Assembly (NCBI GenBank): GCA_000004985.1
Contig: GG738901.1
Source: Naegleria gruberi
Taxonomy: Eukaryota
Length of the DNA stretch: 64,000 nucleotides
Reading direction: 5' to 3' (one strand)
Shown here: positions 441-46,563 of the stretch, piece by piece
Layout of the letters: each line of letters begins with the position of its first letter
How positions within the stretch are numbered: the stretch's first letter is position 1
Made by a program: the position numbers and the translations under genes
Notes under the pieces: generated by a model
Databases searched by the model: none
Seen by the model: only the letters and a program-made list of their open reading frames with translations
What the model was told of the DNA's origin: nothing

Positions 441-914
441 GCGGCAACACACTGTGGTCTCAGGGTCAACAGTGTAGTTACTGAGTGGTATGACATTTTT
501 TTTGAGACGAAATTCAAGAAAAAAATGTAATTTAGTGAATTGTATTATTATTGAGCTTTTTCTTAATGACAGAATTTCCAAAATAAAGATCATTGCATTT
601 TCCTACCATTAAGGTTAAGTTTATTTGAATCTCCGGCCACTGGTTATATAGATTTGTGGGTGATGATCTATTCTATTGCGTTGAATAAAGTCAATGACCT
701 AAAAGGCAGCATTTCTGAGCAACATACCTCATCCTTTGGATGAAGAATATGTTGAGTGAGCTTCTACCCATTGGTTTATCAACGATTGTTTTATTGTTTC
801 TTTTGGAGAAATATGCGTTTTGAAATCTCTTTGTCATTTCAATTTTGGATTTGATTTTGCAAATTTTTTGATGATCAGTCTTTCGTAAGAGGTGAACTGA
901 CTGTTCAAGAAAAA

Positions 915-2633
915 ATGTCAGCAACACTAACAAACCTCTCACACGATGATCTGTTTAATATTCTCGATTTTATTTATCCCTTCTTTTCAGAATATGTCAA
1001 GGCAGTAGGAGGAAAACAATTCGAAGCTCAACATAAACGAGAATATTTAGCCAAGATAATTTTCGGAATTATGAAAGGAAATAATGAGAGGAAGGATTGG
1101 ATTTTGGATTTTCGTGGTAAACACTCTAAAATTATGGGAATTAAACTTGTTTCCAATTTGAATTATAATGAATACTTTTACAAATCGCTCGACGATTCGA
1201 ATGTTTATGTTCCTGCTTTATATTTGAGAAAGTTTTATGAGGATTTAGTTAAGGAAGTGAAGAATTGGTTACTCATTGCAAAGAATGGTCTTTTCTATGA
1301 AATTTTAATGCAAAGTCACATTCCAATAGTTCAACTTTTTTGGGAAAGTTTATTTCACATTATTTAGAGATACTCCTATTATTATGGGAAGTATGAAGTT
1401 TAAACAATATTACAATTTGGAATTGCCAATGATTCAGGATTATATTTTGGATAATATTATTGTGCATGTGATGAAGGCAGTGGAGGAACCAGTTTGGTTA
1501 TTCGAAACTTTTGTTTTCAATGAAATTTCATCTAAAGATGCCCATAGTTTGGGATTCAAAAGTTATCTACGACATTACCAGTTAGAAGAAGGTGAAAAAC
1601 ACGAATTGTATCAGGATGTTTTGGTGGAAAAGAAAGATTGGACGAGTTTGGCAACTGACAATCATTGGGAAGGTTTCTTGATGTTTCTTTCGGATTGTTT
1701 TAACAGATATCCAACTATTTTAAGTGATTCCAAATATGTAGACTTTATCAATTCTCAATTTGAAAAAGATCTAGGAAGGATTTCAAAATTTACTACTGAG
1801 CTTGCCAAATTCCTTTACCTTGACAGAAATATTCCGATTAATCCTATAATTTCAAACAAGTTGTTTACTCTGTTATCATTCACACCAGTTTTTAAACAAA
1901 TTCTAGAAAAGAAACTGAATGAATTAAGGATAACGACAAGGAAAGAAACTCGTTTCTTGCAAATCTCTTTTTAAGAGATTCACTACTTTCTTCCTCTATT
2001 TTAAATTTACAATTCGAAATAATTGACATGCATTTAGATTATATGGACGAATGTTTGGATAGTAAGGTGATTGATTCACACTTCTCAAAGTGCCCTGTAG
2101 TGACTTATTTCATAGAGGGTGCCCTAATGATGGAAGATTTAAGCGATCCATTGAAAAGTTCCATGATTGTTATTGAGTACATTGAGAAATTTAGGAAATT
2201 ATTCGAAAGGTTCAATAGAAAAAATTTTGGTTATTCAATTTATAGAAATATCATAACATTGTTTTCAAATTTCACCCGCAGTGGTCTTACAGAAGATTCA
2301 TATGAATGGCAGTAACGTTTTATAATCTTTACTGAACTATTCCAAAACCTGGTTTCAAATAAGATTGACGATTTACCCGAAACTGACCTATCTTTTATTT
2401 TCAGATATACCTCCAATGAAAAGATTATCACCTTCCTATTCGAACAACCACCACTATTCCATCAAATGTTAGCAAGATACATTCCAGATAGAATTAATGA
2501 AAATCTTTTGAAAATTATCGAGAAATATGTTGGCAATAACAATTCATATTATCAGAGGAATCAAATTGCAATATCCAATGATGAGAAAAATCTCAATGCT
2601 AAATCTACTACCACTTCTACTTTAAGATTATAA
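915..2633 (+). CDS. Hypothetical protein, about 570 aa, encoded in four collinear segments (915-1367, 1384-1974, 2028-2311, 2405-2633)
   Basis: Four same-strand ORFs abut each other. Segments 3 and 4 join cleanly through a 93-nt GTAACG...TTTCAG intron (2312-2404, phase 1; spliced junction ...SYEW-Q-YTSNEK...). Junctions 1/2 and 2/3 each need a 1-nt frame change inside short windows that are open in both frames (1330-1367 and 1923-1974). I could only find 20-22-nt GT..AG candidates there. The cause may be a micro-intron, an indel in the sequence, or a pseudogene. There is no recognisable domain. Confidence 0.4.
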
Positions 2634-12656: not shown

Positions 12657-14180
12657 ATGCTTTCAAACAACCTTCCCTCCACAGATGTCTCCACTCAATC
12701 AGTAGCAGCAGCAACAACAACTCTTCCGAATGGTTATTCTCGGGAGTGGCCAATCATCGTTGAAAATTTACAGAAAATTGCAAATAGAGAAAAAGTGTTT
12801 GGATCGATTGCAGCTTGGATTGAATTTGTAAAGGATTTGGATCAGAAAATTGTTGATGATTGTATGAATAATAATCGTGATGATGACGATGATGGTAGTG
12901 TTCAAGAAGTTTCCAGATCAACTGATTATCACTTTAGAAATTTATCATTCCTTTATAAAAAGATGAATATTTCGGACAAGAAGGAAGCAAAAGAACATTC
13001 ATTGATGAGTGAGAAGGAATTTATGGAAAAGGTTGTTCCAAAGATTGCTCAGTGGATTTTGGATTTGGAAAGAGAGTTTCCAAGTGGAAAAATTCCAGTC
13101 TTGATGATGAATGCATCTGGTGTTGTGAGATTGACCAAGAGACAGATCAGGTCGATTATGAGTTGTGCATTTTGTTGTTTATTCAGAGAAAGAGGAGATG
13201 TATCAAAGAAAAATATGGGTGTTTTCGAGTTTGGATTATTCTGGAGTGTTGCTTCACAAAATTTCCTAATGTCATTATTTCACTATTTTGAGAGGATGTA
13301 TAAATTAGACAATGATAGCTCAACAAGCAGTTCTTTGGATGAAATAATTTTATTTGAAAGGAAGGTTTTAAAGAACAATTATAGGCGATTCATAGAAGAG
13401 GAAATTTGCAAGAGTCAACAAAAGATGTGCCCTTTATTATTCAAACAAGGAAAGATTCAAGATAATCTTAATCACTTGATGGTTGATTTTGCAAATTGTA
13501 TGATTGGTGGACATGTGCTCGGTGGTGCAGTTGCACAAGAAGAGATTTTATTTGTTGAATGTCCAGAGCTTTTTGCATCCATTTTAATTTGCCCTCAAAT
13601 GCAAGTTCATGAAACTATTAAGTTCACAGGATTTGAGAGATATTCAAATTTGAAAGGATACATTAAGAGTATGACTTATGAGACCTATCTAGACAATCAA
13701 CCAGTAATCGAGAACGTAAGAAAGAATCAACTAATTGCTATGGATGCTCTGCAAGGAGTGGGAATTTTCCAATTCCAAAAAGAATTCATTCTTAGAGAAA
13801 TATTCAAAACCACCTGTGCTTTCACATCAAAAGAGAATGATTTCCTCAAAGATTCATCATCTGATTTACCAACATTAGAAAACGAACCTATTGCAAGTGG
13901 ATTCTGGGGCTGTGGAATGTTTGGAGGTGATAAGCAATTGAAAACAATCATTCAATGGTTGAGTGCTACTTTATGTAATAGACCTTCTCTAACTATTCAT
14001 CTCTTTTCACCTGAGGATGAGAAAATTGAACAAGATTTCAACACAAAAATACTTCCATTAATTGTGGAGAAGGAGTTAAGTCTTGGTCAAGTTGCAGATG
14101 CATTACTCAACACTTACCAATCAGTTAGAAAAACAACATCTTTTTCAATTTTTGAATTTCTTCATCAAAACTTCAAATAA
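12657..14180 (+). CDS. PARG: Poly(ADP-ribose) glycohydrolase (PARG)
   Basis: The PARG catalytic signature is DFANCMIGGHVLGGAVAQEEILFVECPEL (the GGG-X6-8-QEE motif). The downstream conserved block is ASGFWGCGMFGGDKQLKTIIQWLSA (compare …WGCGAFGGD..LK…Q). It is a single exon with its ATG in A-rich context. Confidence 0.85.
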   Translation: MLSNNLPSTDVSTQSVAAATTTLPNGYSREWPIIVENLQKIANREKVFGSIAAWIEFVKDLDQKIVDDCMNNNRDDDDDGSVQEVSRSTDYHFRNLSFLYKKMNISDKKEAKEHSLMSEKEFMEKVVPKIAQWILDLEREFPSGKIPVLMMNASGVVRLTKRQIRSIMSCAFCCLFRERGDVSKKNMGVFEFGLFWSVASQNFLMSLFHYFERMYKLDNDSSTSSSLDEIILFERKVLKNNYRRFIEEEICKSQQKMCPLLFKQGKIQDNLNHLMVDFANCMIGGHVLGGAVAQEEILFVECPELFASILICPQMQVHETIKFTGFERYSNLKGYIKSMTYETYLDNQPVIENVRKNQLIAMDALQGVGIFQFQKEFILREIFKTTCAFTSKENDFLKDSSSDLPTLENEPIASGFWGCGMFGGDKQLKTIIQWLSATLCNRPSLTIHLFSPEDEKIEQDFNTKILPLIVEKELSLGQVADALLNTYQSVRKTTSFSIFEFLHQNFK

Positions 14181-28300: not shown

Positions 28301-29406
28301 TTATTCAGTCTTAGTCTTCTTCTTCTTGTTCCAATGAGGCTTACCACCACGTCCACCAAAGCCCTTTCTCTTATTCTTATTGCTTTCAGCAAACTTAGCT
28401 TCACAGGTCTTAGCAATATACTTTTCCAAATCTTCTGGAGCCATTTCCGAAGCAACAGCTTTACCTGGAAGTTCAATCTTTCCTTCATCGAATTGTTGTT
28501 TAAGAGAATCGAAAACTTCCTTTGATTCCAATCGAAGAATAGCCTTGGTCTTATCACCATCGAGTGGGAAATCAATAAACTTCAAACCATTCTTCTTGTT
28601 GTATGGCAATTTCTTGGAGAAATCAGCAAATCCGAACTTTTCGTCACCTTCAATTCCTTGAATGTGCAAGAAAAAGTTTTGCTTCAATTCAGTTTGCATA
28701 TTAGAAACATCTTCTTGCTTCTTTTCTTGATTCTTCTTTTGCTTACTTTCTTCACGTTCCTTTCTCTTTCTATCAAAATGTTGTTGCTTGGTTTCCAAGA
28801 GGAGAACAGATTCTCCAAACTTGAAGTCAGACTTTCCAGCCAATTCATTAACAGTAGATTCAGAATCGAATTCAATGAAAGCAGATCCCTTGAATGTACC
28901 ATTCTTTTCTCTTCTGGCTCTAACACAGACAACTTTACCAAAAGGTTCAAAAAGAGCCTTGATTGAATCGAGATTAGCAACACTTTCATCGAGTGGGAAT
29001 CCCTTAGCATATAAAGTACGAGCATTGCTAGTATCAACTTCTGGAAGAGCAGTGATTCTTCTAACCAACTTTCCTTCAGCATCAATTTCCAACATGGAAC
29101 TCTTCTTCAAAGCAGAAACAATAAGATCCATATCAGTAGAAATTTGTTTCATTCTATTAAAGGAAGCAATAGTCTTAAGTTCAACATCTATTCATCATCA
29201 TCATTATCAAATTATCATCATCATCAACAATAATATCAATGTATGGGATATCGGTTAATCAATATTGACAATATAAAACACTTACATCCTTCAGGATTGT
29301 TAGCAACGAGACTTCTCAAAAATTTATCCTTTGGAAGATTACTATCACTAAAGTAGAATTCAACTTGTTCACGAATCTTGTTTGAAGTAATTTCAGCGTC
29401 AGACAT
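28301..29406 (-). CDS. La protein (La motif + RRM), 336 aa, 2 exons (29406-29286, 29187-28301)
   Basis: Exon 1 MSDAEITSNKIREQVEFYFSDSNLPKDKFLRSLVANNPEG matches the La motif (…[20 protein letters not shown]…). It ends at donor GAT|GTAAGT in phase 1. The 98-nt intron ends GAATAG. Exon 2 continues YVELKTIASFNRMKQIST… (compare WVPLEIMIKFNRLNRLT). RRM1 follows: RTLYAKGFPLDESVANLDSIKALFEPFGKVVCVRARR…FKGSAFIEFDSESTVNEL, with a basic C-terminus. Confidence 0.8.
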
Positions 29407-29832: not shown

Positions 29833-31136
29833 TTAGTTTTGATGTTCAGGGTGATTATGTCTCGAGTAGAGTGGTTGATCATCTATTTCGTCAGATAAAT
29901 CTTGTATATGAAGACCAGCAAAGGTACTTGAGCTCAGTGTACTCAATTTGATAACTTGCATTTTGCTGAGGGAGATTTCTAATTCTTGTTCAATTTCCTT
30001 TGAGGATTCCTCAGTGATGGCATTCTGATTTTGTAACCAATTGATAAAGTATTCTTCACTGGAGCAAGTGAGGATTGAGAAAACTATTCCTCTATAGTAG
30101 GACCAAAAGTAGTAACTGCCAACAAATATTGGTGTCATGGAGATGACAATTCTGATTGGAATTATTCTGTGAAGTGATAAGAGCCATGTCAGTAAGGCAA
30201 TAATAATACTAGCTACAATAAGAATGAGTCCACTGGTTTCAGTTGCTGCAGAACTGAACTCTTCAAGTACTCTGGAGAAAGTGAATATTGTAAATAAATT
30301 ATTAGTGAACACTTACTTTCTACTAAGAATAATCATAATAACAATCAATACCAAGTAAAAAATTGTAAATGAAAAATTGACAGCAACAGAAGTGACACTA
30401 TATCTACACTTGTCATTGCTAATATAAATTTCCTCAATTGCACTCGCAATAATACAGTAAATTATTACAGGAATCAGCAAGAGCACAATGAAAACCATGT
30501 TAATATATTTGAGTTTTCTCTTTGTTTTAAATCCAATCAAGACAATGAGTTGTCTTGTGAGCAATGTGCAAATCCAACCAAACTATTTCAATTTTTTAGA
30601 ATAATCCATTGCGAAGAAAATACTTACAAATCCAATATTGAAAAACCAAATTGAAAATGTCACACACAATCCCTTTGTTGAATTTGCGAGTAATCCATTA
30701 TTGAACTGTAAAATTCGAAAGATTAAGAATGTATCATTTCTAATACTGAAAAATATGAAATACCTACACAATATCCAATAAACATGACTGCATTGAAGAA
30801 TAAAGTTTTTGCCATTAGAAAGGGATGTTTCGAACGGACAGCAATCTTCTTGTACTTGGTAAAAACCAAAGCCATAGCAACGAAATTACACAAAATCATG
30901 AAACAACCAACAGAAAAAGCAACAATATCTGCAGGTGTTTGTGATGGTACTGGTTTAAATCCGAAAGGGTTTAGAATAGATGAATTAGAGGAATCTCCTG
31001 AATATAATGGTTGATATTGTTCCGTATCAAAATCTCCAAATAAATTAAACAGAGTTGATAGGAGTGGTGTTTGTTGTTCTTCTCCTATCGAATGAAATGT
31101 TAAATGTGTCATGTCATCCACAGTATGTTGAGACAT
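29833..31136 (-). CDS. Seven-transmembrane receptor-like (GPCR-like) protein, 384 aa, 4 exons (31136-30768, 30705-30628, 30582-30317, 30271-29833)
   Basis: Four minus-strand ORFs in different frames join exactly. Exon 1 ends GYC with donor GTAGGT and a 62-nt intron ending TTTTACAG. Exon 2 (FNNGLLANSTKGLCVTFSIWFFNIGF) ends with donor GTAAGT and a 45-nt intron ending GAAATAG. Exon 3 ends in phase 2 with donor GTAAGT and a 45-nt intron ending TCTCCAG. Exon 4 runs to the TAA. The exon lengths sum to 1152 nt. Seven hydrophobic helices sit between an extracellular N-terminus of about 60 aa and an acidic C-terminal tail of about 70 aa. Confidence 0.6.
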
Positions 31137-31269: not shown

Positions 31270-32250
31270 TTACAGAACAAATCTTGGTACGTTCTCATTT
31301 TCCTGTGCTAAATAATTTATATTATCAATGTTATTCATTGATAACATGTTTCCAATATTAAATTGAGTAAGGTCTGTATTCTGAGAGAGGAGAAATGTCA
31401 GAATAGTTTCAGAATCATTTGGTCCTGTATATTCTGTGAAATAATCAGAGAAGGGATACTTTTCCAATTTTTCCTTAAAGAGATCAAGCTTGGTAAAAAC
31501 TATTGAAACATCCGCTGGTATATATTCTGAATAATTTACAAATTCACTAAAATTTTGTAAAGCCAACCAAAGACAATTAGCTCCAGAAATTGAGTCTGTT
31601 AAATTGTAATCTGCAAGGGAAATTAAATAAATTACTCGTGTCATGGTATTGTCAAAATGAGAAATCCACTTTCGTTTCTCATTTCTTTGTGGACTAGGAT
31701 CAATTAGTTTACTTGTTTCAAATGAAAATTCATAAATTGATGACTTGGAATGAGGTATTTTAGTTTGTAAAAGATCATGAATTGTAAAATCTGCATTGAT
31801 TGCTTGTAATTTGGCAATGAAATTCTCAGAAAAAAAGTATCGAATATTTTCCATATATCTGAAATGATGTGAAATGAATTCCAATTCCTCACTCTTTAGC
31901 ATTGTTAAATATTTCATAAATTCGATCATGCTTGATGTGAAAACTCCACTTTTCCTAGCTTTTTTAATTTCCTCATTTAAATTACTGAATTTAAAATCGA
32001 CTATTTTGAATGTTTGCCAACAGATGTCCAAACATCGAATGACATACTTTCGAATATGCAATTCTCTTTCTTCCGCATTCATCATGCTATTAGTTTCTTT
32101 CGATAGATGATAAATTCCATGTCGAAAGGTTGACTTTCCACTTGAACATGCTCCTAGAATTAGTATTTGTTTTTTGCATGGTGTAATTCTGCGTCTCAAA
32201 GCAGTATCAATAGCTTGACTGTGAAGTTTCTGCTGCTTTCGTTTACTCAT
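31270..32250 (-). CDS. Divergent heterotrimeric G-protein alpha subunit-like protein (326 aa)
   Basis: G1 P-loop KQILILGACSSGKSTF (compare KLLLLGAGESGKST). G3/switch II region DPSPQRNEKRKWISHFDNTMTRVIYLISLADYN (compare [32 protein letters not shown]). G4 TKLD with LFKEKLEKYPFSDYFTEYTGPNDSE (compare [26 protein letters not shown]). A helical-domain insert lies between G1 and G3. DVGG is replaced by DPSP and the C-terminal TCATDT motif is not evident. Confidence 0.75.
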   Translation of the reverse strand: MSKRKQQKLHSQAIDTALRRRITPCKKQILILGACSSGKSTFRHGIYHLSKETNSMMNAEERELHIRKYVIRCLDICWQTFKIVDFKFSNLNEEIKKARKSGVFTSSMIEFMKYLTMLKSEELEFISHHFRYMENIRYFFSENFIAKLQAINADFTIHDLLQTKIPHSKSSIYEFSFETSKLIDPSPQRNEKRKWISHFDNTMTRVIYLISLADYNLTDSISGANCLWLALQNFSEFVNYSEYIPADVSIVFTKLDLFKEKLEKYPFSDYFTEYTGPNDSETILTFLLSQNTDLTQFNIGNMLSMNNIDNINYLAQENENVPRFVL

Positions 32251-32623: not shown

Positions 32624-33061
32624 ATGTTGAACAATAAATCTGAGCGAAGTGGTGATGAAAAAGAGGAGGATCTTGTGATTCAGAATCCCTCTAACTGTAA
32701 ATGTAATAATCACAACAATGGTAAGCAGCATCTTGAAGGGACAAATTTAATGCAACAACCACAACCACTGTTGGATGATGATGTGAATGATATTCTTCAA
32801 TTATTAACAATAGAAAGTTGCAGTGGAGGTTGTAGCTTTGATTGTCTTAAATTCGAAGAGAAGGAAGCAGTCGAAGAGGATACCTGTAATCCAATGTCGC
32901 AACAACATCTTCCTTCCGATATCAAATCGGAACCAATTCTCCTACTGCTTACTGATAAGAAGGCAACATCAACAATGGATCACAACGTAAGTTATCATCA
33001 AACATGTAAATTAACGTGCCATTTGGGCGATTTGACTAATTCAGAAGTCGTATGCATCTAA
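32624..33061 (+). CDS. Hypothetical acidic/Cys-containing ORF (145 aa) in the Gα–cyclase intergenic region; possibly a separate small gene or a 5' exon
   Basis: ORF with ATG only. No similarity recognised. Confidence 0.25.
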   Translation: MLNNKSERSGDEKEEDLVIQNPSNCKCNNHNNGKQHLEGTNLMQQPQPLLDDDVNDILQLLTIESCSGGCSFDCLKFEEKEAVEEDTCNPMSQQHLPSDIKSEPILLLLTDKKATSTMDHNVSYHQTCKLTCHLGDLTNSEVVCI

Positions 33062-33239
33062 CAAACAAGGCGACAATTTTCATCATGAAAAAAGAACAGA
33101 CAATATCATCAACAAGAAGAACAAGGCTTCCTCATCATTAGGCAGTGCTTTTAAAGAAGATTTTGTAAATTTTGTTTCAGAATCCACAAGTTCCTCTTAC
33201 ATTCCGCAACAGCCATTCACAACATTATATTCGAAAAGA

Positions 33240-36200
33240 ATGAAGGACGAAGAGATGGTGGAGAATAATCAATCTACTGTTAATGAAGATGGAATCAAGA
33301 CATCATCTGAAGCTAAACCAACACAATTTAACCACTCCTCACATCATCAAAGGCCTCATCATATTAACAAGGGTCTCGGAGAAGAACAACAATACAAATT
33401 TCCTTCATCTATTACACCACTTTCACTGGCCAATATTCATGCCAATGCATCGACTAACTTACTGCTAACTTCATCAACATTATTTAATTCTTCAAGTGAA
33501 TCACATGGTGGTGGAACCATTTCGAGAAGCTCCTCCAATACTTCAATGGATAGCTCCTCCTATTCACTCTTGAATAATCACCATCATCTAACCACATCTT
33601 CCTCACCCTCTGATGGTTTTCACTCAACTCTAAAATCCCTAGAAAATGTTCTCCCTCCATTCTTTACTCCATGCGTGCCACCTCATGCATCATTCAATTA
33701 CTATTCAGAACATTATTGGGGAGAACATCCCTTATCACTAACCTCCTTCTCTCCAATTCTTCATTATGAAAAGAAGTCATCTCTAACGATTATTTGTCGA
33801 TACACACCACAACAAACTAGGAATTCTCCAAGAAGGGAGAGACCTTCCTCTCAAAAAGAATTAATAGAGAATGAGATTTATTGTCTGAAAGTTTCACTGG
33901 ACAAACCATCCATTCCAAAGCTGGAAAGGGATGCAGAAATTTCTCGATTCTTGACCAATGAATTTTCTCAAGTGTTGGATCCAGCACAACAGGTTATTGT
34001 CAGTACTAAGGCCTATTTGTCTGATTATTTTATTCTCGTGAGGGAGTTTATTGATTGTGTTTCGTTGAGATCATTTATTGATAGATCGAAAACATATGCT
34101 AGAGCAGAACCAATTACTGATGAGAATTTTGAAACCTTAACAGATGATACTGTAACACTTCTCAATGAAGAACAACGAGTGAAAGAAAACATTACAATAT
34201 TGGAAAGTAATTTAACACTTGCTATTTCTATTTGTATGAGTGTTGCTCAACTGCATCACTCAAGAGTTTGTCATGCTGACATTAGGCCAGAAAATATAAT
34301 TGTAGAAGGACCTAAATGCAATATAAGATTGATTGATTTTGGAAAGAGTACATTCCTCCCTTTGGAGCATCCATTTTTATATACCGATAAAATTATTGGT
34401 AGTCAAATGTATTGTGCTCCAGAGGCAACAGGAAAGATTCCAAAACCAATAGGTTTCCACACTGATATATATTCACTTGGATTTGTTCTCTTTGAGTTAT
34501 TTTCCAAAGAACATCCATTTACCAAGTTTAGGACATTAGATTTCGTATTTCAACATTTGACTCAACAGCCAGAGTCCTTGTTTCAAAATCTAGCGAGAAG
34601 GTCTTTTATATCAGCCAATGAAGGAAACCTATTCACAGCTGCTACTAAAGCAATTTCAAGACTAATTACCAAAGCAATTCAAAAATCTATTGAGAAACGT
34701 TATTTGAGTATTTTTGGATTGAAACGAGATTTGGTCTACATACAGAATGCTATTCAACTAGAAGATATGGAAGCTCTTGAAAATTTTCAAGCTGGTATGA
34801 ATGATGTTCAAACAACTTTATCCATACCTTATGGTGTATATGGTAGAGAGGAAATTTTCAAAAAATTGGAACTGAAACTTGAAAATATGATGGAATCTAG
34901 TGAGCCAACGATTGTCCTTCTGGGGGGCTATAGTGGCATAGGTAAATCATGTATTGTTAAGGAGTTTAGGACAAGAAGTAAAACAGCAATACAATTCTTT
35001 GAGGCAAAATACGATCAACATATGAATGTACCTTACTATGCCATTATTTCCATATGTAAACAAATTATTGGCGACGTTCTTGGAGAATCTGAATCAGTGA
35101 TTAAGGATTTCAGATTCCAACTTGGTACACTTATCAATTCAGATCAATTAGAAATGTTGAGTGATGCAATTCCTGACATGTCATATTTATTTACAACTAA
35201 TGCAACCAAAAAGCATACCTCCCCATCAATGGGAGATCAGAATGGAGAGCGTATGAAGCTCTTTTCACAAGGAAGTAAGTAATATTTTGAATTTAACATT
35301 ATAACAATATTATATTGCTCAGTTATTCATCTCTTTAGTGTTTATACTCATTTAAAGAAAAAGAGGTTATGCATTTTCTTGGATGACTTGCAATGGACTG
35401 ATTTTGATAGCATGAAGCTATTGAAGGAAATTCTTGGAACTGGTTCTTGTGATACTGTTCCTCTTTTAATTATTGGAGCATATAGAAATAACGAAGTGGG
35501 AAAGGACCATCCTCTATTTTACTTTTTAGAAAATCTCAAACTTAAAGTGAACATTGAAGAAATTGAAGTTGTTGAGTTGACAGAAGATCAATCTAACATG
35601 ATTGTCTCAGAGTCTTTAAGGAAAAATAGAGCTGAAACAGAAGAACTAACCAAAATACTCTTCTCTAGGACGAATGGAAACCCCTTCTTTTTAAAGCAGT
35701 TATTGGCTGGTTTATTTAAGGACGGATCTATTTATTTCGATACTCAAACAGATACTATTACATGGGATAAAAAGAAAATAGAAAATGCAGAATACTCTGA
35801 AAATGTTATTGACTATCTCCTTGGACATTTGGAAAAATTACCAAAACAAACACAAGATATTCTTGCATTTGCTTCTTGCTTTGGAAATAAGTTTTCCAAT
35901 GAAGACATGCTCCACCTACTCAATCAGCAACAAGAAGAAAAGATAGACTTGATGCAACTTAAAGAAAGATTGAACTATGCGGTGAAGGAGGGATGGATTT
36001 CAAATATCAATTCTGGTAATTTACGATTTAATCATGATAGACTCCAACAAGCTGCTTATGAATCACTGCCTTTGAATGAAAGGTTGAGAATTCACTATAC
36101 CTATGGTAAGCAGCTTCTCAAAAAAGCAGAAGAAGATGATTCTTTGGAGGAACGTTTATTTGATATAGTTGTACAGTTAAATCACAAACATAATGATCCT

Positions 36201-39200
36201 GCTTTCTTGGAGAATAGAGATGAGAGAAGATTACTCATTGACCTCAATAATAGAGCTGCAAAGAAGGCTTTGGAAACATCATCTACAGATAAAGCCATTG
36301 GCTTTGTTTATATTGCAAGGCAAATTCTAGAACACGAACCAGACTGTTGGAGTGAAGAAACTTATAAGTTGGCTTTTGAGAGTTTACTAATTGTTGGTAA
36401 TTGTAACTATTCTGTAAATATAGAATTGGCAACCTCTCTATTCATGGAAGCTATTCAAAAAGCTCAAAACAAGACAGATCTTTATGAGGCATGCAACCAT
36501 GGATTGATGGCCTATCTTTCACAAGGAAAATATGAAGATGTGTTTAAAATTTTGACTGATCATGTATTTACTACATATGAAGAGTTGAATTTCCTTACTC
36601 AGGAGCATACTGTTGAATCCTTGACAACATGGATACTTAACAAGATGAAATACATGAAAGAACATGTGCTCGTTAATTTTACTCAAAAATCTGACATTCT
36701 CAATTTGCCAGATATTGATGATTTGGAAAAGTGGCATCTTATTTGTTTGCTCACTCAATCCTGTCCTGCTGTTTTTCATATGAATAACTCACTCAGCAAA
36801 CACTACTTTATGATTATGATATTAATATCGTCTGATATAGTTTTAAATAATGGCATTACTCCTCTTTCCCCATTGTTAATTTCAGTCTTTGCATGGTCTT
36901 GGTGTAATTTTGAGTTTTATCCTCAGATGAACATGTTCTTAGAGGCAGGATTAGAGATGGAAAAGACTAGATTCAGGAATGAGCATGAATTGGCAAGTTG
37001 CACATTGATGAAGTTGATGAGTTATTACTTTTCGCCAACAATTAACCCTCTTGAGGTGTGGAATATATCCGAGGAAGCCTTCTTATTGTCTGTGAAATCA
37101 AAGAACAAACACTATGGCGGTTTCTCTATTCTGTGGTATCCATTCCATCACTTATTCTATAGCCACGGAGATGTAAAGACTTCTATTGGATTGAGCTTGA
37201 ATTCAATTGAGATTTTCAAGAGAAATGGAAATGTTATGTTGATGGATGCCAGTAAAATGATACTGGAATTGAAATATGTTCTTTCAGGAGATGTAGACCA
37301 TTACCTGCCAACGTATGTAAGCCAAGTGAAGGAATATCCATTCTTTAGACAAATGCACTACTCGTTCAAGGGAATTTCACTCTATTTCCAAAATGATATT
37401 GAAAAATCTTTCAAGTGTATGGAAAAATCGTATGATTTTAGAGAAGACTCTGTTGGTATGTGTTCAAGCTGGATTGATTTAATCTTCCTAGGTTTAATCT
37501 CAGCTATCTTTTTGAGAAGTGCTCAAGAAAAGATTGAAAAAGCCCAAGAAATACTGAAATATTCTATAGAAAGATTGGAAATGATTTCCCAAGCTAATTC
37601 TTCTGTTTTTCTTGCTCCTTTGGAGTTCATAAGAGCCGAGACATTGTACTCAGAATATTGTAGAACAGGTGTCGAAAATACTAGAAAAATCATTTCTCAC
37701 TACAGAAAGAGTTATATTATGGCTGAAAAGGAAAGAAACACCTTTTTAGCTAGGCTGATTAATTTGAGAACAGGAGAGTTTTACAACAGTCTAGGTATGG
37801 ATGATGGTATTAGTGGAAACTACTTCCTTAGAGCTATGGAATCTTTTGAACAGTTTGGTGCTTCCATCGTTGTTGATTATATTTTGGAGAATTATTCAGG
37901 TCACATCGATGGCTATTCATCATTTAGTAATAGAAATCCTGAACAAGTATTCTCTAACACTTCTCTATCTGATGAAACAACAGATCACTCTCTTGCTGGA
38001 GTAACAAAGAGCAGAATTTCTGAATCAACAGAATTGGATTTTAGAGAGATTTTCATTTCAATTCTGCCAATTCTTTCAGAACAAACGTTATCACCAAGAT
38101 GTTGTTTGATTTTGAAGAGAGATTCAACAGTTTATGTAGATGCCGAATTTAATGCAGACCTGAATTCTATTGAAGCACTTTCGTCTACCAAACAATTCGA
38201 AAATAGTGATTTGGACAAATTTTCAGATTTATTCCCTCTCAAGATGATTCACAGAACTCTAAGATCCAGAACAGAGCAACAACTCGTATGGAATGACAAT
38301 GAGAAAGAGTATTACTTTGTGAAGAATGTAGTGGCCTCTGCTTTATCTATTCCTATCATGAAGAAAAAGACAGTCATAGGTATGCTTTTTATTATTATTT
38401 TATTTATATTATTTAATGTATTAAGGTTGTATATACTTGGAAAATAAGGAAACGAAGGATGTATTCACAACTGAAAAAATTAACCTTGCCAAACTTATCA
38501 TCTCGATCAGTTTGGACAATGCTGGAATTTTCACATCTATTAACAAATCCTATGCTAGGTTTTTACCTGCTGAATTCTTAAAGTTGCTTGGAAAGAGTCA
38601 CGTAACTAAGGTAAGGTTGGGCGATGCAGTTTCTAGAGAAATGACAGTGCTCTTCAGTGATATTTATGGATTTACAGAGATTATGGAGGGACTTTCTGCA
38701 AAGGATGGCTTTGCTTTTATTAATCTACTATTGAAGAGTATTGCACCTCCAATTTCAAGAAACTCTGGATTTATTGACAAGTTTGTTGGTGATGGAATAT
38801 TGGCATTGTTTATTGAACCGCAAGGAGCTGTCACTGCAGCTTTAGAAATGATTTCAGAATTGGAAGTTTTCAATAGTAGAAATAATACCAATGTAAAGTT
38901 GGGAGTTGGTTTGCATCATGGTATTGTTCAACTTGGTACGATTGGATATGAGCAACGATTGGATGCTACTGTTATTTCAGATACTGTGAACACAGCTAGC
39001 AGATGTGAATCTCTCACAAGAACTTTTCATTCACATATTCTAGTTACTAAACCAGTTATGGATGCTGTTACAGTGCCACACAGTGTGATAAGTACCGAGT
39101 TGGGTAAATTCATGCTGAAAGGAAAACACATACCTCATCAAATTTACAATATCGCTTCTAAATCATGGAAAGGAAGTGGTAGTGCTAAAGAATTCGCTTT

Positions 39201-39423
39201 ACTAAGCAAAGTTATTGATCTCTTCTCCAGGAGTGAATTTACCGAATCATTTGCCCTCGCAGAAACAATTCTCAAGAATACAAAGAACAATACCATTATA
39301 GCTGCATGCAACATGTATAAGGAAGCATCAACATTATACGGATCAGTTGTTTTACCAAGTGAATGGCAAGGTGAAATTCGGTTGACCAAGGATGGAGAAG
39401 TCAGAGAGTACTTTTCAAAATAA
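33240..39423 (+). CDS. Multidomain signalling protein of about 2017 aa: Ser/Thr protein kinase – STAND P-loop NTPase – long helical region – GAF-like segment – class III adenylyl cyclase; 3 exons (33240-35278, 35366-38379, 38426-39423)
   Basis: Kinase: HADIRPENIIV, DFGKS, CAPE, DIYSLGFVLFEL. NTPase Walker A IVLLGGYSGIGKSCIV lies at the end of ORF 1, and Walker B LCIFLDDLQW is created only after splicing an 87-nt intron (GTAATA at 35279 to AAAAAGAG| at 35365). The adjacent GTAAGT at 35275 gives the wrong phase. The second intron, GTATGC at 38380 to TTAAG| at 38425 (46 nt, phase 1), regenerates …SALSIPIMKKKTVIG-CIYLENKE…, a GAF-like terminal strand. Cyclase: MTVLFSDIYGFTEIM, DKFVGDGILALF (Lys consistent with adenine specificity), GLHHGIVQLGTIG, DTVNTASRCES. 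The exons sum to 6051 nt. The N-terminal 230 aa are S/H/N-rich. Confidence 0.7.
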
Positions 39424-43740: not shown

Positions 43741-46563
43741 TTAAAGGTCATCATCTGATTCAACCTCTTCGACTCCCTCCACTATTGGTTCTTCTTCTTC
43801 TACAATCATAGGGCCACTTTGATTGTCAACTCTGGCTTTGGTGAATTTGTAGAGTTTGTCCAAGAGTGAACGACCTTGATCCCACCAAGAAATATCAACC
43901 TCATGATAGGTGCCACGAAGTGGATTGATAACTCCAATATTCTTAATTTCCATTCCATCCAATCTAGCCATGGCTGCATAGCAGAGTAATTGAATAATCC
44001 ACTCAACTTCAATATCTTGGGATACCGAACATTTAATATCAATAATGGTCTCGCCATCAATGATGATATCTGCCTCTCCAGTAACATGTTTTCCATAACT
44101 GAGACTTCTATGGGTATTAACTGAGCTTTCAGTTTTTTCTACAATAAATGGAACAAAGTGCTCTTGTAAATTATTGAACAGTTCTGTATAGTTTGGAGCA
44201 ATGTCCTTAATAAAGTCAAACTTTTTCTTTAGATTGGTATTGCCAAGATAGAGCATTCTGGTTCTTCCCTCTTTAACAACTGCATCAAGTTTGGAAATTT
44301 CGAATACACTTTCTAGAATATCAATTGACTCATAATTTGGATTTGTAAAAATTCTGTAAGCTGTTTTTAAACTGTCTACATAACCGGGTGGGAAGGCATA
44401 TTCTGTCATTACTGGAATAACCTCGAATGAAAATTGTCCCTTCTCCAATATTTTCTCGAAAGATTCAATAATCTCAGTCATGACTATCTTTTCATAGCCA
44501 TCAGTAATAGATTTTAACAAAGCTTTTGGAGGTTTTCCATTTCTCATCAACTGCTTCAATTTCTTTGCATATCTATTAAAGACCTGGATACTGCCTGTAT
44601 TTAATACGATTGCCTCGTTAATGAAGAGTTCAGTGCATGTATGACTAAAACCTCCTCCATTAGGTATTTTCTCAGAAATCATTCTACAAAATAAAGTATC
44701 AATAAAGTTTCCAAAGTCTGTAAACATTTGATTTTCGTAAACCACGTCACAGTATGCAAAGTCTGTATCCACAATTTTGGTTTTCGTAAATTCGATTTGT
44801 GGCAAACATCCTTCTTCCTTGAGTATTGTCATGAGTTCTCCATCAATATTACGAACCATATTTGTTACGGTGTATGGATTAATAGATGAGTCGGATGCTG
44901 ATCTTGGCTGTTCTGAAATACGCAAGTCTGTGGGACTATGTAATCTGAATACGCTACGATCAATCTCTGTTATATAACTCAAACAAGTTGCTGTCTTGGG
45001 GAGAACAATGTGTAACTCATCCTTTGCTCTGGTAACAGCCACATATAATACACGTCTTAGTTCCGCATCATTATCACCTTTCCATTTATCATTTGATGAA
45101 TCCACCAAGAAAACAATATCCCACTCCAAACCTTTAGACTTGTGTATGGTTGATAGGCAAACTTTTCCAGTTGTTGTGTGTCTTTCCATTTCCTTTAAAG
45201 ATTTTGATTTTTCCATAATAGTAATATGTGGAATGAAGAATTTAGATAATTGTTCCTCTACCTTATAGAGACCATAATTTGTTGGAGAAAGGATTGCTAT
45301 TCTTTCTCTTGGCACTCCACGTTTCAAATATTCTGATATTTTCTTAGCAACATACAAACCCTGGTTATCATTTACAATGATTGGTTTAAGATTAGATTCT
45401 CTTGTGGTTGTCATTTCTTTTGGAATATTATCTGGATTATTTCTCAAAATTGCATTTGCCACTTGCAAAATTTCTGGCGTACTTCTATAATTTCTAGTCA
45501 GTGTTAACAGCTTAGAGTTTGGATATTTTGAGTGAAAATTCAAAATATGTTCCACACTGGATCCTCTCCATGAGTAAATGTTTTGCGAATCATCTCCTAC
45601 GGCAATTATCTTGCATCCTCTTTTGTGAAACTCTTCAAAAATCTCTGCTTGAAAATTATCAATATCTTGATACTCATCAATTATGAGATACTTTTTCTTT
45701 TTACAAATTTCATCCGCAATTTCTGGATAATTCTTCATTAAGTTCCTCAATCTATATCCATATTCAATCACACAAGCTTGAGAATCAAAATATTGCCAAT
45801 ATTTCTTCAATGTCTTGTAAGCAAATGCATCAATGGTTCCAATAGTAAATTTACTCTTAACTCCAATACTGGCAAGCTTTTCCTTCATATCATTTGCTGC
45901 CAATCTTGAAAATGTTGTCAACATGATCTGATGAGCTGGAATTTTCAAATACTTTATCATGTAAACAATTTTACAAATAATGGTTGTTGTCTTTCCACTT
46001 CCAGCGCAAGCCAACACTAACAAGTCATCATTCACATCTCCAAAAACAACTTGCTTTTGTTCTTCACTCAAATCAATCTGTACATCATCAATTGTAAATG
46101 TTTTCATAATTTCCTCTTCGGATGGAAAAACAATTTCCTTCTTCTTCCTTACTCTTTTTACAGGCTTTGAAATTTCCTCATCACCTCCAAAATTAATTTC
46201 CGGCATTAAACTAATTGCCTCATTACTCATAGCATTAATGATTTCTTCCTTTTCTTGAGGTTGGTGAGTAGAAAATAATTCCTTCACCTCATCATCTTGT
46301 TGCTTCAAAGTCTGTTTCCTTCTCGTAGCATTATTAATCAAAGATTGAGAAAAACATCTCCTCATCATTACATGATTCAATAAAGTAGAGTTATTGGTTT
46401 TCAACAAGGCTGATGAAGATCCTGTCGGGAATGATTTATTTCCACCATTAATTTTAATATGATTAATTATATTATTGTTATTACTATTTAAATGATGTAA
46501 AGTTGAAGTGGATGATAATGTATTCAAGCGATAGAGAAGTGAATTGTGCTTGATGTTGCGCAT
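43741..46563 (-). CDS. UvrD/PcrA/Rep-family SF1 helicase fused to a C-terminal RecB-like PD-(D/E)xK nuclease domain (940 aa)
   Basis: Helicase motifs: I LVLACAGSGKTTTI, Ia TFSRLAANDMKEKL, II LIIDEYQDI, III VGDDSQNIYSWRG, IV TLTRNYRSTPEIL, and V/VI TIHKSKGLEWDIVFL…RRVLYVAVTRAKDEL. The C-terminal 150 aa carry GEADIIIDGETIIDIKCS (the D…D.K core of the PD-(D/E)xK fold) followed by QLLCYAAMA (the QxxxY motif of RecB-family nucleases). An N-terminal extension of about 150 aa is N/S-rich. Confidence 0.8.
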   Translation of the reverse strand: MRNIKHNSLLYRLNTLSSTSTLHHLNSNNNNIINHIKINGGNKSFPTGSSSALLKTNNSTLLNHVMMRRCFSQSLINNATRRKQTLKQQDDEVKELFSTHQPQEKEEIINAMSNEAISLMPEINFGGDEEISKPVKRVRKKKEIVFPSEEEIMKTFTIDDVQIDLSEEQKQVVFGDVNDDLLVLACAGSGKTTTIICKIVYMIKYLKIPAHQIMLTTFSRLAANDMKEKLASIGVKSKFTIGTIDAFAYKTLKKYWQYFDSQACVIEYGYRLRNLMKNYPEIADEICKKKKYLIIDEYQDIDNFQAEIFEEFHKRGCKIIAVGDDSQNIYSWRGSSVEHILNFHSKYPNSKLLTLTRNYRSTPEILQVANAILRNNPDNIPKEMTTTRESNLKPIIVNDNQGLYVAKKISEYLKRGVPRERIAILSPTNYGLYKVEEQLSKFFIPHITIMEKSKSLKEMERHTTTGKVCLSTIHKSKGLEWDIVFLVDSSNDKWKGDNDAELRRVLYVAVTRAKDELHIVLPKTATCLSYITEIDRSVFRLHSPTDLRISEQPRSASDSSINPYTVTNMVRNIDGELMTILKEEGCLPQIEFTKTKIVDTDFAYCDVVYENQMFTDFGNFIDTLFCRMISEKIPNGGGFSHTCTELFINEAIVLNTGSIQVFNRYAKKLKQLMRNGKPPKALLKSITDGYEKIVMTEIIESFEKILEKGQFSFEVIPVMTEYAFPPGYVDSLKTAYRIFTNPNYESIDILESVFEISKLDAVVKEGRTRMLYLGNTNLKKKFDFIKDIAPNYTELFNNLQEHFVPFIVEKTESSVNTHRSLSYGKHVTGEADIIIDGETIIDIKCSVSQDIEVEWIIQLLCYAAMARLDGMEIKNIGVINPLRGTYHEVDISWWDQGRSLLDKLYKFTKARVDNQSGPMIVEEEEPIVEGVEEVESDDDL

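Follow-up and report, generated by a model that had tools for sequence, protein, structure and literature searches.

Can a G-alpha-like protein whose G3 box reads DPSPQ instead of DVGGQ still act as a GTP-driven switch? This question was raised by NAEGRDRAFT_72962, a gene of Naegleria gruberi that was studied within a stretch of 64,000 nucleotides (nt) of contig GG738901.1 (assembly GCA_000004985.1), referred to as the window; coordinates are positions in it unless another locus is named. The product of its open reading frame (ORF) is identical over the entire length (100% identity) to XP_002672027.1/D2VVC0, a public model of the same 326 amino acids (aa) that is labeled "predicted protein" of N. 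gruberi. Judging from its motifs, we read the protein, with moderate confidence, as a switch-dead G-alpha that abandoned the GTP-driven switch; by analogy with the XLG proteins of plants, it is probably a non-switching binding protein.

The family to which the protein belongs was established by profile and structure searches. The Pfam G-alpha profile PF00503 matched it with 151.6 bits (E 3.9e-44; gathering cut-off, 48.8 bits), residues 10-296 being aligned with profile positions 3-302 of 333, and a phmmer search of the PDB returned G-alpha chains only. An AlphaFold2 model built from an input alignment of 77 relatives reached a mean predicted local distance difference test (pLDDT) score of 86.3 and a predicted template modeling (pTM) score of 0.83, and it contained an alphaN helix, a Ras-like domain, an all-helical insert domain and, at the C terminus, a short helix. 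When the model was compared with the PDB by Foldseek, only Gi/Go/Gq/Gt structures were found (template modeling [TM] score of ~0.74 over ~313 columns), and the top 50 matches were G-alpha chains throughout (TM 0.67-0.75, 307-342 columns). NAEGRDRAFT_72962 is thus a member of the G-alpha family by homology and fold, as a first-pass annotation of this DNA had proposed, and the model presents it as a full-length, folded paralogue of alpha subunits from heterotrimeric G proteins.

The nucleotide-binding motifs were then read from an alignment of NAEGRDRAFT_72962 with human Gi1 and 104 other full-length relatives. The Gi1 reference sequence was confirmed as a full-length match to PDB Gi1 chains, and residue labels such as Gly42, Arg178 and Gly203 follow Gi1 numbering. 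The P-loop keeps GxxxxGKS, with Gly42 replaced by Cys and Glu43 by Ser. Switch I is degenerate: the Arg finger R178 is K164, the Mg-binding Thr181 is His, the RGS-contact residue Gly183 is Lys, and two residues are inserted compared to Gi1. Its I172 and E174 (I184 and E186 in Gi1) are kept. At G3, DPSPQ (residues 184-188, 31687..31701) aligned exactly onto DVGGQ both in the hidden Markov model (HMM) alignment and in the MAFFT alignment, with Asp and Gln kept and both Gly residues lost. The switch II helix, RNEKRKWISHFD, is conserved and keeps R205, E207, K210, W211 and F215. At G4, the Asn of NKxD is Thr and both Lys and Asp are kept; [NT]KxD occurs only once in the protein, and guanine recognition via the G4 Asp may survive. 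At the position of G5, where Gi1 has TCATDT, we found L-S-M-N-N-I-D, in an exact register that is ambiguous and with no Ala available. Residues 298-326 lie past the PF00503 match, which ends at residue 296 and leaves the profile unmatched after position 302. The first-pass annotation had described an intact P-loop, DPSPQ for DVGGQ with the Gln retained, TKLD as G4 and no recognizable TCATDT, and each of these descriptions agrees with the alignments to G-alpha chains and relatives. Its list of losses, G3 and G5, was correct as far as it went but incomplete, since R178, Thr181, Gly183, Gly42, Asn269 and the lipidation signal are gone as well.

Losses of this kind might be an artefact of reading, with G3 mis-registered or a canonical G5 encoded on a missed exon. 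We consider this extremely improbable. A mis-registered G3 was ruled out by the exact register of DPSPQ and by a motif scan in which no D-x-x-G was found in the entire protein. A hidden 3' exon with TCATDT was ruled out as well: the 133 nt between the stop codon and the next ATG (31136) hold no suitable frame, no TCATDT-like exon was present in any of the three frames of this gap, and no canonical G-alpha motif was detected in a six-frame scan of the whole window. Moreover, the public gene model is identical to the ORF, and relatives carry a degenerate VNLTDT at the collinear position.

The residues that NAEGRDRAFT_72962 has replaced are otherwise highly conserved. Among the 104 comparison G-alphas, Gly203 was found in 97, Arg178 in 88, Thr181 in 93, Asn269 in 97 and Ala326 in 92, and all of these are substituted here. 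A G4 with Thr (TKxD) occurs in 7/104, one of the seven being otherwise canonical at nine key positions. Scattered fungal and amoebozoan members of the same set also deviate at G3, G4 or switch I, and degenerate G-alphas as such are not unique. The two ends of the protein were also altered. The N terminus is basic (MSKRKQQK) and lacks Gly2 and Cys, and thus carries no signal for myristoylation or palmitoylation. Only 17 residues follow the G5 position, compared to 25 in Gi1, and alpha5 is therefore short by ~8 residues; the AlphaFold2 model ends with a strand (298-302), a helix (308-320) and a disordered segment (321-326). Despite the short alpha5, the C-terminal tip RFVL is hydrophobic, as in canonical G-alphas. 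In sum, five of six sequence features of a canonical switch are missing (switch I Arg/Thr, DxxGQ, NKxD, the TCAT box and N-terminal lipidation), and NAEGRDRAFT_72962 should therefore not be named a functional G-alpha.

Are these substitutions peculiar to one gene? A search of relatives for the same changes had been suggested, and it was done exhaustively with HMMER on 1.84 billion representative proteins. Of 2181 relatives at E <= 0.001, four stood apart with 114-164 bits, compared to at most 88 bits for the next matches, and these four share the substitutions. They are the N. gruberi paralogue NAEGRDRAFT_63704 (P0003; G3 DPSDM, G4 TKTD, G5 VNLTDT), C9374_010133 of Naegleria lovaniensis (P0004; DPNEQ, TKSD, VNLCDT) and two metagenomic proteins, P0005 (DTSGQ, THID, VNITSS) and P0006 (DPSGQ, TYVD, VDLTDY), which come from two separate contigs of one ENA sample, ERZ27315067. 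Across the five members, the Arg-finger position reads K/K/K/Q/K. Thr181 and Gly183 are absent from all four relatives, and the G4 Asn is Thr in 5/5, with Asp272 invariant and Lys270 present in 3/5. The G5 of NAEGRDRAFT_72962 is more eroded than that of its relatives. None of the five starts with MG, compared to 48/74 canonical relatives, and I14 and L18 of alphaN (I19 and L23 in Gi1) are invariant.

An HMM of the five sequences scored its own members at 371-498 bits and all other matches at 240 bits or less, and the five were monophyletic in a neighbor-joining tree (Poisson distances) with a bootstrap of 100/100. We argue that the clade itself is real from its shared derived motifs: an ID[PT][SN]x[QM] G3, a T-x-x-D G4, Lys or Gln at the Arg finger, a VN[LI]T-type G5, a basic non-lipidated N terminus and CxxxC in alphaA. 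Since pairwise identity among the members is just 27-36%, the degenerate state is old and carried by several lineages. Invariant residues occupied 38/304 ungapped columns, counted after the N terminus of P0006 had been restored from a neighboring frame; in Gi1 terms they include Gly40, Ser44, Gly45, Lys46, Asp200, Asp272, Ile184, Glu186, Glu207, Lys210, Phe215, Ile19 and Leu23. We take the substitutions, as seen in these five sequences, to be old and maintained. A scan of JGI metagenome contigs with the clade profile yielded 80 loci, all of them canonical DVGGQ G-alphas, and no further member. The clade is small and rare and was found only in Naegleria and on two metagenomic contigs.

Two observations on individual members of the clade are recorded here. 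The CxxxC motif of NAEGRDRAFT_72962 (C73 and C77; 32020..32034, minus strand) lies in alphaA, with which the helical domain begins, is unchanged in 5/5 members and corresponds to Ser80 and Ile84 of Gi1; possible roles are metal binding, redox chemistry or acylation, or simply core packing. In the metagenomic locus of P0006 (L002), the N terminus encoding the P-loop (792..1040) stands in a different frame from the remaining gene. The break, near position 1000, stands either for a 1-nt frameshift or for a mistake in assembling the metagenome, and the database protein (255 aa) is therefore truncated.

How would such a protein work? Pro at the Gly203 position would offer no backbone NH to bond the gamma-phosphate and would stiffen the hinge of switch II, leaving switch II unable to flip between its GDP and GTP shapes. 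Combined with the loss of Thr181, Arg178 and Gly42, this would abolish the GTP-induced rearrangement and make hydrolysis negligible. The protein would then act by constitutive protein-protein binding, most likely through a surface formed by alphaN and switch II. Our grounds for this proposal are the analogy with XLG2 and the fact that conservation is highest in alphaN, Ile184/Glu186 and the switch II helix. G-beta-gamma would be the most likely partner, a proposal that we hold less firmly than the loss of switching itself, and the role would be that of a decoy, a dominant-negative or an alternative scaffold. The putative G-beta-gamma contacts I19, L23, I184, E186, E207, K210 and F215 (Gi1 numbering), assigned after the heterotrimer structures of Gi1 and Gt, do not vary within the clade, which lends this proposal indirect support. 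With the RGS-contact Gly183 lost, the protein is predicted to be RGS insensitive, and it would not be lipid anchored, although its basic N terminus may attract it to membranes electrostatically to some extent. The P-loop, Asp200 and Asp272 do not vary among the members, and we therefore lean towards a guanine nucleotide still being held as a structural cofactor; the bulky residues at the G5 Ala position (M/L/L/I/L in the five members) count against tight guanine binding.

Several points weigh against the proposal that switching was lost, or limit what can be built on it. We defined 54 canonical positions as sites at least 80% conserved in canonical G-alphas; NAEGRDRAFT_72962 keeps 29/54, compared to a mean of 92% for canonical members. 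This loss is not enriched in the pocket, where 9/15 positions are kept compared to 20/39 elsewhere (Fisher p = 0.76). The losses are spread over the whole protein, and the pattern alone is therefore no proof of a targeted loss of switching. In addition, Gln204 is kept in 4/5 clade members and the P-loop is intact, and some nucleotide chemistry may therefore persist. The confidence of the AlphaFold2 model is lower across switch II (70-80), and the neighbor-joining grouping was possibly aided by long-branch attraction, its neighboring branches P0029 and P0150 being other degenerate G-alphas. Finally, the candidate partner G-beta-gamma is suggested solely by the segment that is best conserved in all G-alphas. 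Pocket-specific erosion or targeted remodeling was accordingly dropped as an explanation on the basis of the Fisher test. The earlier description of a "re-modelled switch II" stands as far as DPSPQ is real, and overstates the specificity of the change, as the losses are protein-wide.

Despite this protein-wide divergence, the losses inside the pocket look orderly. The residues kept are those for the alpha and beta phosphates and the base (Gly40, Gly45, Lys46, Ser47, Thr48, Leu175, Asp200, Lys270 and Asp272). Those lost contact the gamma-phosphate or Mg or serve catalysis (Gly42, Arg178, Thr181 and Gly203), and of this group only Gln204 is kept. Asn269 and Ala326 of the pocket are lost too.

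The same residues can be read as a nucleotide switch that still works with unorthodox chemistry, binding GTP via the P-loop, Asp200 and T-K-x-D, with Gln188 and Lys164 replacing the Gln/Arg pair, and being either slow or served by a dedicated GTPase-activating protein or guanine nucleotide exchange factor. GxxxSGK, D200 and D272 are indeed found clade-wide, K270 and Gln204 in most members, and the TKxD of other G-alphas in the comparison set fits as well. TKxD is, moreover, a functional G4 in SRP-type GTPases. The kinetics of N. fowleri G-alphas were also shown to be very diverse (PMC9283941). However, with Pro in place of the DxxG Gly, the NH to which the gamma-phosphate is bonded is missing; Gly42 and Thr181, which binds Mg in the GTP state, are lost too, and G5 has a bulkier residue where Ala is expected. 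Substitutions of Arg178 in Gs and Gi cripple hydrolysis. Arabidopsis XLG2, with a similar G3 (DVGG changed to R/N/P), binds GTPgammaS 100-1000x more weakly than canonical G-alphas (10.1101/795088). We thus regard a working switch as unlikely and retain the reading in which GTP-driven switching has been given up.

The spread of the losses could also mean that the gene is a decaying or functionless relic of the large G-alpha expansion of Naegleria, with a frame that is merely still open. The low number of canonical positions kept and their even loss fit this explanation, as do the apparent 1-nt frameshift in P0006 and the rarity of the clade, with none in the JGI scan. On the other hand, a 326-codon open frame has a probability of ~2e-11 by chance given the DNA composition. 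Five lineages at 27-36% identity keep full-length frames and 38 shared invariant residues, the AlphaFold2 fold is confident, and the frameshift may be an assembly error. A relic is accordingly rather improbable in our view, and a maintained protein that no longer switches is preferred.

The genes next to NAEGRDRAFT_72962 were examined as well (Table 1). A gene for a seven-transmembrane (7TM) protein begins 133 nt downstream on the same strand; it had been noticed earlier as a neighbor, and this was corroborated by an approximate splice model, by hydropathy and by a sub-threshold Pfam match. Six hydrophobic segments were detected, three of them long enough for two helices each, and seven helices were read from the sequence. 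The match to 7tm_3 (class C G-protein-coupled receptors [GPCRs]) reached 27.9 bits, below the cut-off of 33.5 bits, over profile positions 6-237 of 251. The 7TM protein lacks a large extracellular domain, and its C-terminal tail comprises ~100 aa. On the other side lies a divergent gene with Pkinase, AAA_16 and Guanylate_cyc domains, whose ORFs resemble exons of a single large gene, possibly with ORF 32624-33061 as the first. The window is AT-rich (G+C 31-37%), and the introns of its genes are short and of the GT..AG type.

This arrangement would be expected if the adjacent 7TM protein, and possibly the kinase-STAND-cyclase too, had NAEGRDRAFT_72962 as a dedicated transducer that acts as a nucleotide-independent adaptor, a role that would be compatible with a loss of switching. 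The canonical-like hydrophobic tip RFVL would fit such a role. In contrast, alpha5, the main receptor contact, is shortened, and no 7TM or cyclase neighbor was found at the loci of three relatives (L001-L003 for P0005, P0006 and P0004), where the neighbors differ: P0004 and P0006 lie beside an unknown protein, and P0005 lies beside a possible RGS fragment. A tblastn search of these loci with the 7TM protein was likewise empty. The absence of the 7TM adjacency at these loci thus gives no support for functional pairing. N. gruberi has expanded signaling families, GPCR components among them (PMC3971589), and in a compact genome of this kind chance adjacency is plausible. A dedicated transducer is therefore doubtful, and a clustered receptor/transducer/effector module, with the G-alpha-like protein as an adaptor between a class-C-like 7TM protein and the cyclase, is less probable still; if true, it would be a G-protein pathway operating without a GTP cycle. 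We return to a non-switching binding protein as the preferred reading of the gene.

Further observations were made at the loci of the relatives. Directly downstream of P0005, L001 3796..3996 (plus strand) is a contig-end fragment that weakly matches the beginning of the RGS domain (E 0.05, 14.4 bits). L003 8884..9867 (minus strand), which adjoins P0004, and L002 2795..3736 (plus strand), which adjoins P0006, encode homologous proteins (blastp E 1.9e-15) with no Pfam domain and no homologue in the window. The former, from N. lovaniensis, starts with MGQ, a possible myristoylation signal. This protein and the G-alpha-like gene of the clade may form a conserved gene pair. A kinase C-lobe with 54% identity to window 34230-34517 was found in an unannotated N. 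lovaniensis ORF of 137 aa (L003 16139..16552, plus strand); when synteny with N. lovaniensis was examined, this fragment was the sole piece resembling the kinase gene of the window. The ORF is ~5 kb away from P0004, in an order and orientation that differ from the window, and could be remnant synteny or a decayed copy.

Elsewhere in the window, an RRM ORF (28301-29152) and an N-terminal exon that looks La-motif-like by eye (29236-29406, "EFYFSDSNLPKDKFL") together suggest an intron-split gene for a La-type RNA-binding protein at 28301..29406 (minus strand). A poly(ADP-ribose) glycohydrolase gene (12657..14180, plus strand; PARG_cat_C E 7e-51) and a UvrD/REP-type helicase gene (43741..46563, minus strand; E 4e-40) are unrelated to the G-alpha-like gene.

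Table 1. Features of NAEGRDRAFT_72962 and its neighbors in the window
Feature	Coordinates	Strand	Remarks
G-alpha-like coding sequence, NAEGRDRAFT_72962	31270..32250	-	One exon, 326 aa, stop within coordinates
alphaN helix, residues 2-20	32191..32247	-	AlphaFold2 helix
G1/P-loop GACSSGKST, residues 33-41	32128..32154	-	GAGESGKST in Gi1; alignments
All-helical domain, ~residues 55-161	31768..32088	-	AlphaFold2 helices 59-161; whole-length Foldseek match
Degenerate switch I QTKIPHSKSSIYE, residues 162-174	31729..31767	-	RTRVKTTGIVE in Gi1; alignments
G3/switch II DPSPQRNEKRKWISHFD, residues 184-200	31651..31701	-	Alignments
G4 TKLD, residues 253-256	31483..31494	-	NKKD in Gi1; alignments
beta6, G5-loop relic and short alpha5, NIGNM LSMNN IDNINYLAQENEN VPRFVL, residues 298-326	31273..31359	-	
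7TM gene, ~390 aa	29833..31136	-	Approximate splice model
7TM gene introns	30706..30746, 30583..30627, 30272..30316	-	Approximate model, 41-45 nt each
Kinase-STAND-cyclase gene	~32624..39423	+	Divergent from the G-alpha-like gene
Kinase-STAND-cyclase ORF	33240-35282	+	Pkinase and AAA_16/STAND NTPase
Kinase-STAND-cyclase ORF	35379-38447	+	No Pfam match
Kinase-STAND-cyclase ORF	38437-39423	+	Adenylate/guanylate cyclase domain, E 1e-16

If the reading is true, Naegleria evolved its own nucleotide-independent G-alpha "decoys" separately from the XLGs of plants. This would add weight to the idea that, in lineages with an expanded family, G-alpha paralogues turn time and again into scaffolds that do not switch. 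What a G-alpha must retain after giving up the GTP cycle could then be read from the clade as a natural experiment: its members have kept the P-loop, Asp200 and Asp272 as well as alphaN and the switch II helix. It would also add a negative or scaffolding element to the G-protein network of Naegleria, including the pathogen N. fowleri, a network that is considered a drug target. A degenerate G-alpha is unsurprising in a genome known for expanded signaling families. The gene was already public as an uncharacterized predicted protein, and the gain is therefore one of interpretation and not a new kind of system. Our literature search found no paper describing this clade and none combining "pseudoGTPase" and "G alpha".

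Compared to canonical G-alphas (human Gi1/Go/Gq), NAEGRDRAFT_72962 shows whole-length homology, with the Ras-like and helical domains, alphaN, GxxxxGKS, Asp200, Gln204, the switch II helix RxExRKWxxxF, K270/D272 and the segment "LFKEKLxKxPxxxxFxEYTGPN" in common. It differs from them in its identity of ~21-24%, in lacking Arg178, Thr181, Gly183, Gly42, Gly202/203, Asn269, the TCAT box and the MG(C) signal, and in its shorter alpha5 and switch I insertion. The closest parallels within the genus are the N. fowleri G-alpha1-13, which share the lineage-specific diversification of G-alphas, also published for N. gruberi (PMC3971589), and the conserved switch II Trp (PMC9283941). All 13 are reported to keep the switch I glycine, whose change to Ser is the classical RGS-insensitivity mutation, and those tested showed nucleotide-dependent activation (Bosch et al. 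2022, PMC9283941). The clade lacks this glycine and is therefore apparently not among them.

PseudoGTPases such as the p190RhoGAP domains and AAGAB likewise combine a GTPase fold and degenerate G motifs with use in protein-protein interaction (PMC12490416, PMC5593906), but on small-GTPase-like folds. A further comparison is with the dominant-negative G-alphas (Gs G226A, Gi/Go G203A and Gi1 G42R/V), in which the DxxG Gly or Gly42 is also substituted. With such substitutions, GTP no longer induces the change of switch II, but G-beta-gamma is still bound. Our own searches returned proteins of this type: PDB 7ts0, an engineered "dominant negative Go alpha" matched by phmmer, has DVGAQ as its G3, and the titles of the Foldseek matches include 3qi2, Gi1 G42R, which "prevents transition to the activated state", as well as G42V and A326S. 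These mutants are single changes in a canonical background, whereas the changes in NAEGRDRAFT_72962 are natural, multiple and ancient. The first-pass annotation had predicted altered GTP hydrolysis and switching and suggested a GDP-like or nucleotide-independent scaffold, a functional proposal that would agree with the behavior of the G203A and G42 mutants and of XLG2.

Among natural precedents, XLG2 of Arabidopsis comes closest. Its G3 is likewise degenerate, with Pro in place of Gly203, and neither the P-loop Gly42 nor the G5 Ala is retained; its affinity for RGS1 and G-beta-gamma is nonetheless normal, and a role as a decoy was proposed for it (10.1101/795088). In XLGs, the degenerate G-alpha domain is preceded by a long extension that includes a Cys-rich region and a nuclear localization signal, whereas NAEGRDRAFT_72962 is G-alpha sized: with 326 aa and a G-alpha match from residue 10, it has no N-terminal extension and is thus not an XLG. 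Moreover, XLGs lost the P-loop Lys and Asp200, both of which are kept here, and NAEGRDRAFT_72962 in turn no longer has Gly183, the contact for RGS proteins. Plants and Naegleria appear to have arrived at such degeneration independently. By this analogy, NAEGRDRAFT_72962 probably works like an XLG, and its clade would be a case of convergent evolution with the XLGs of plants.

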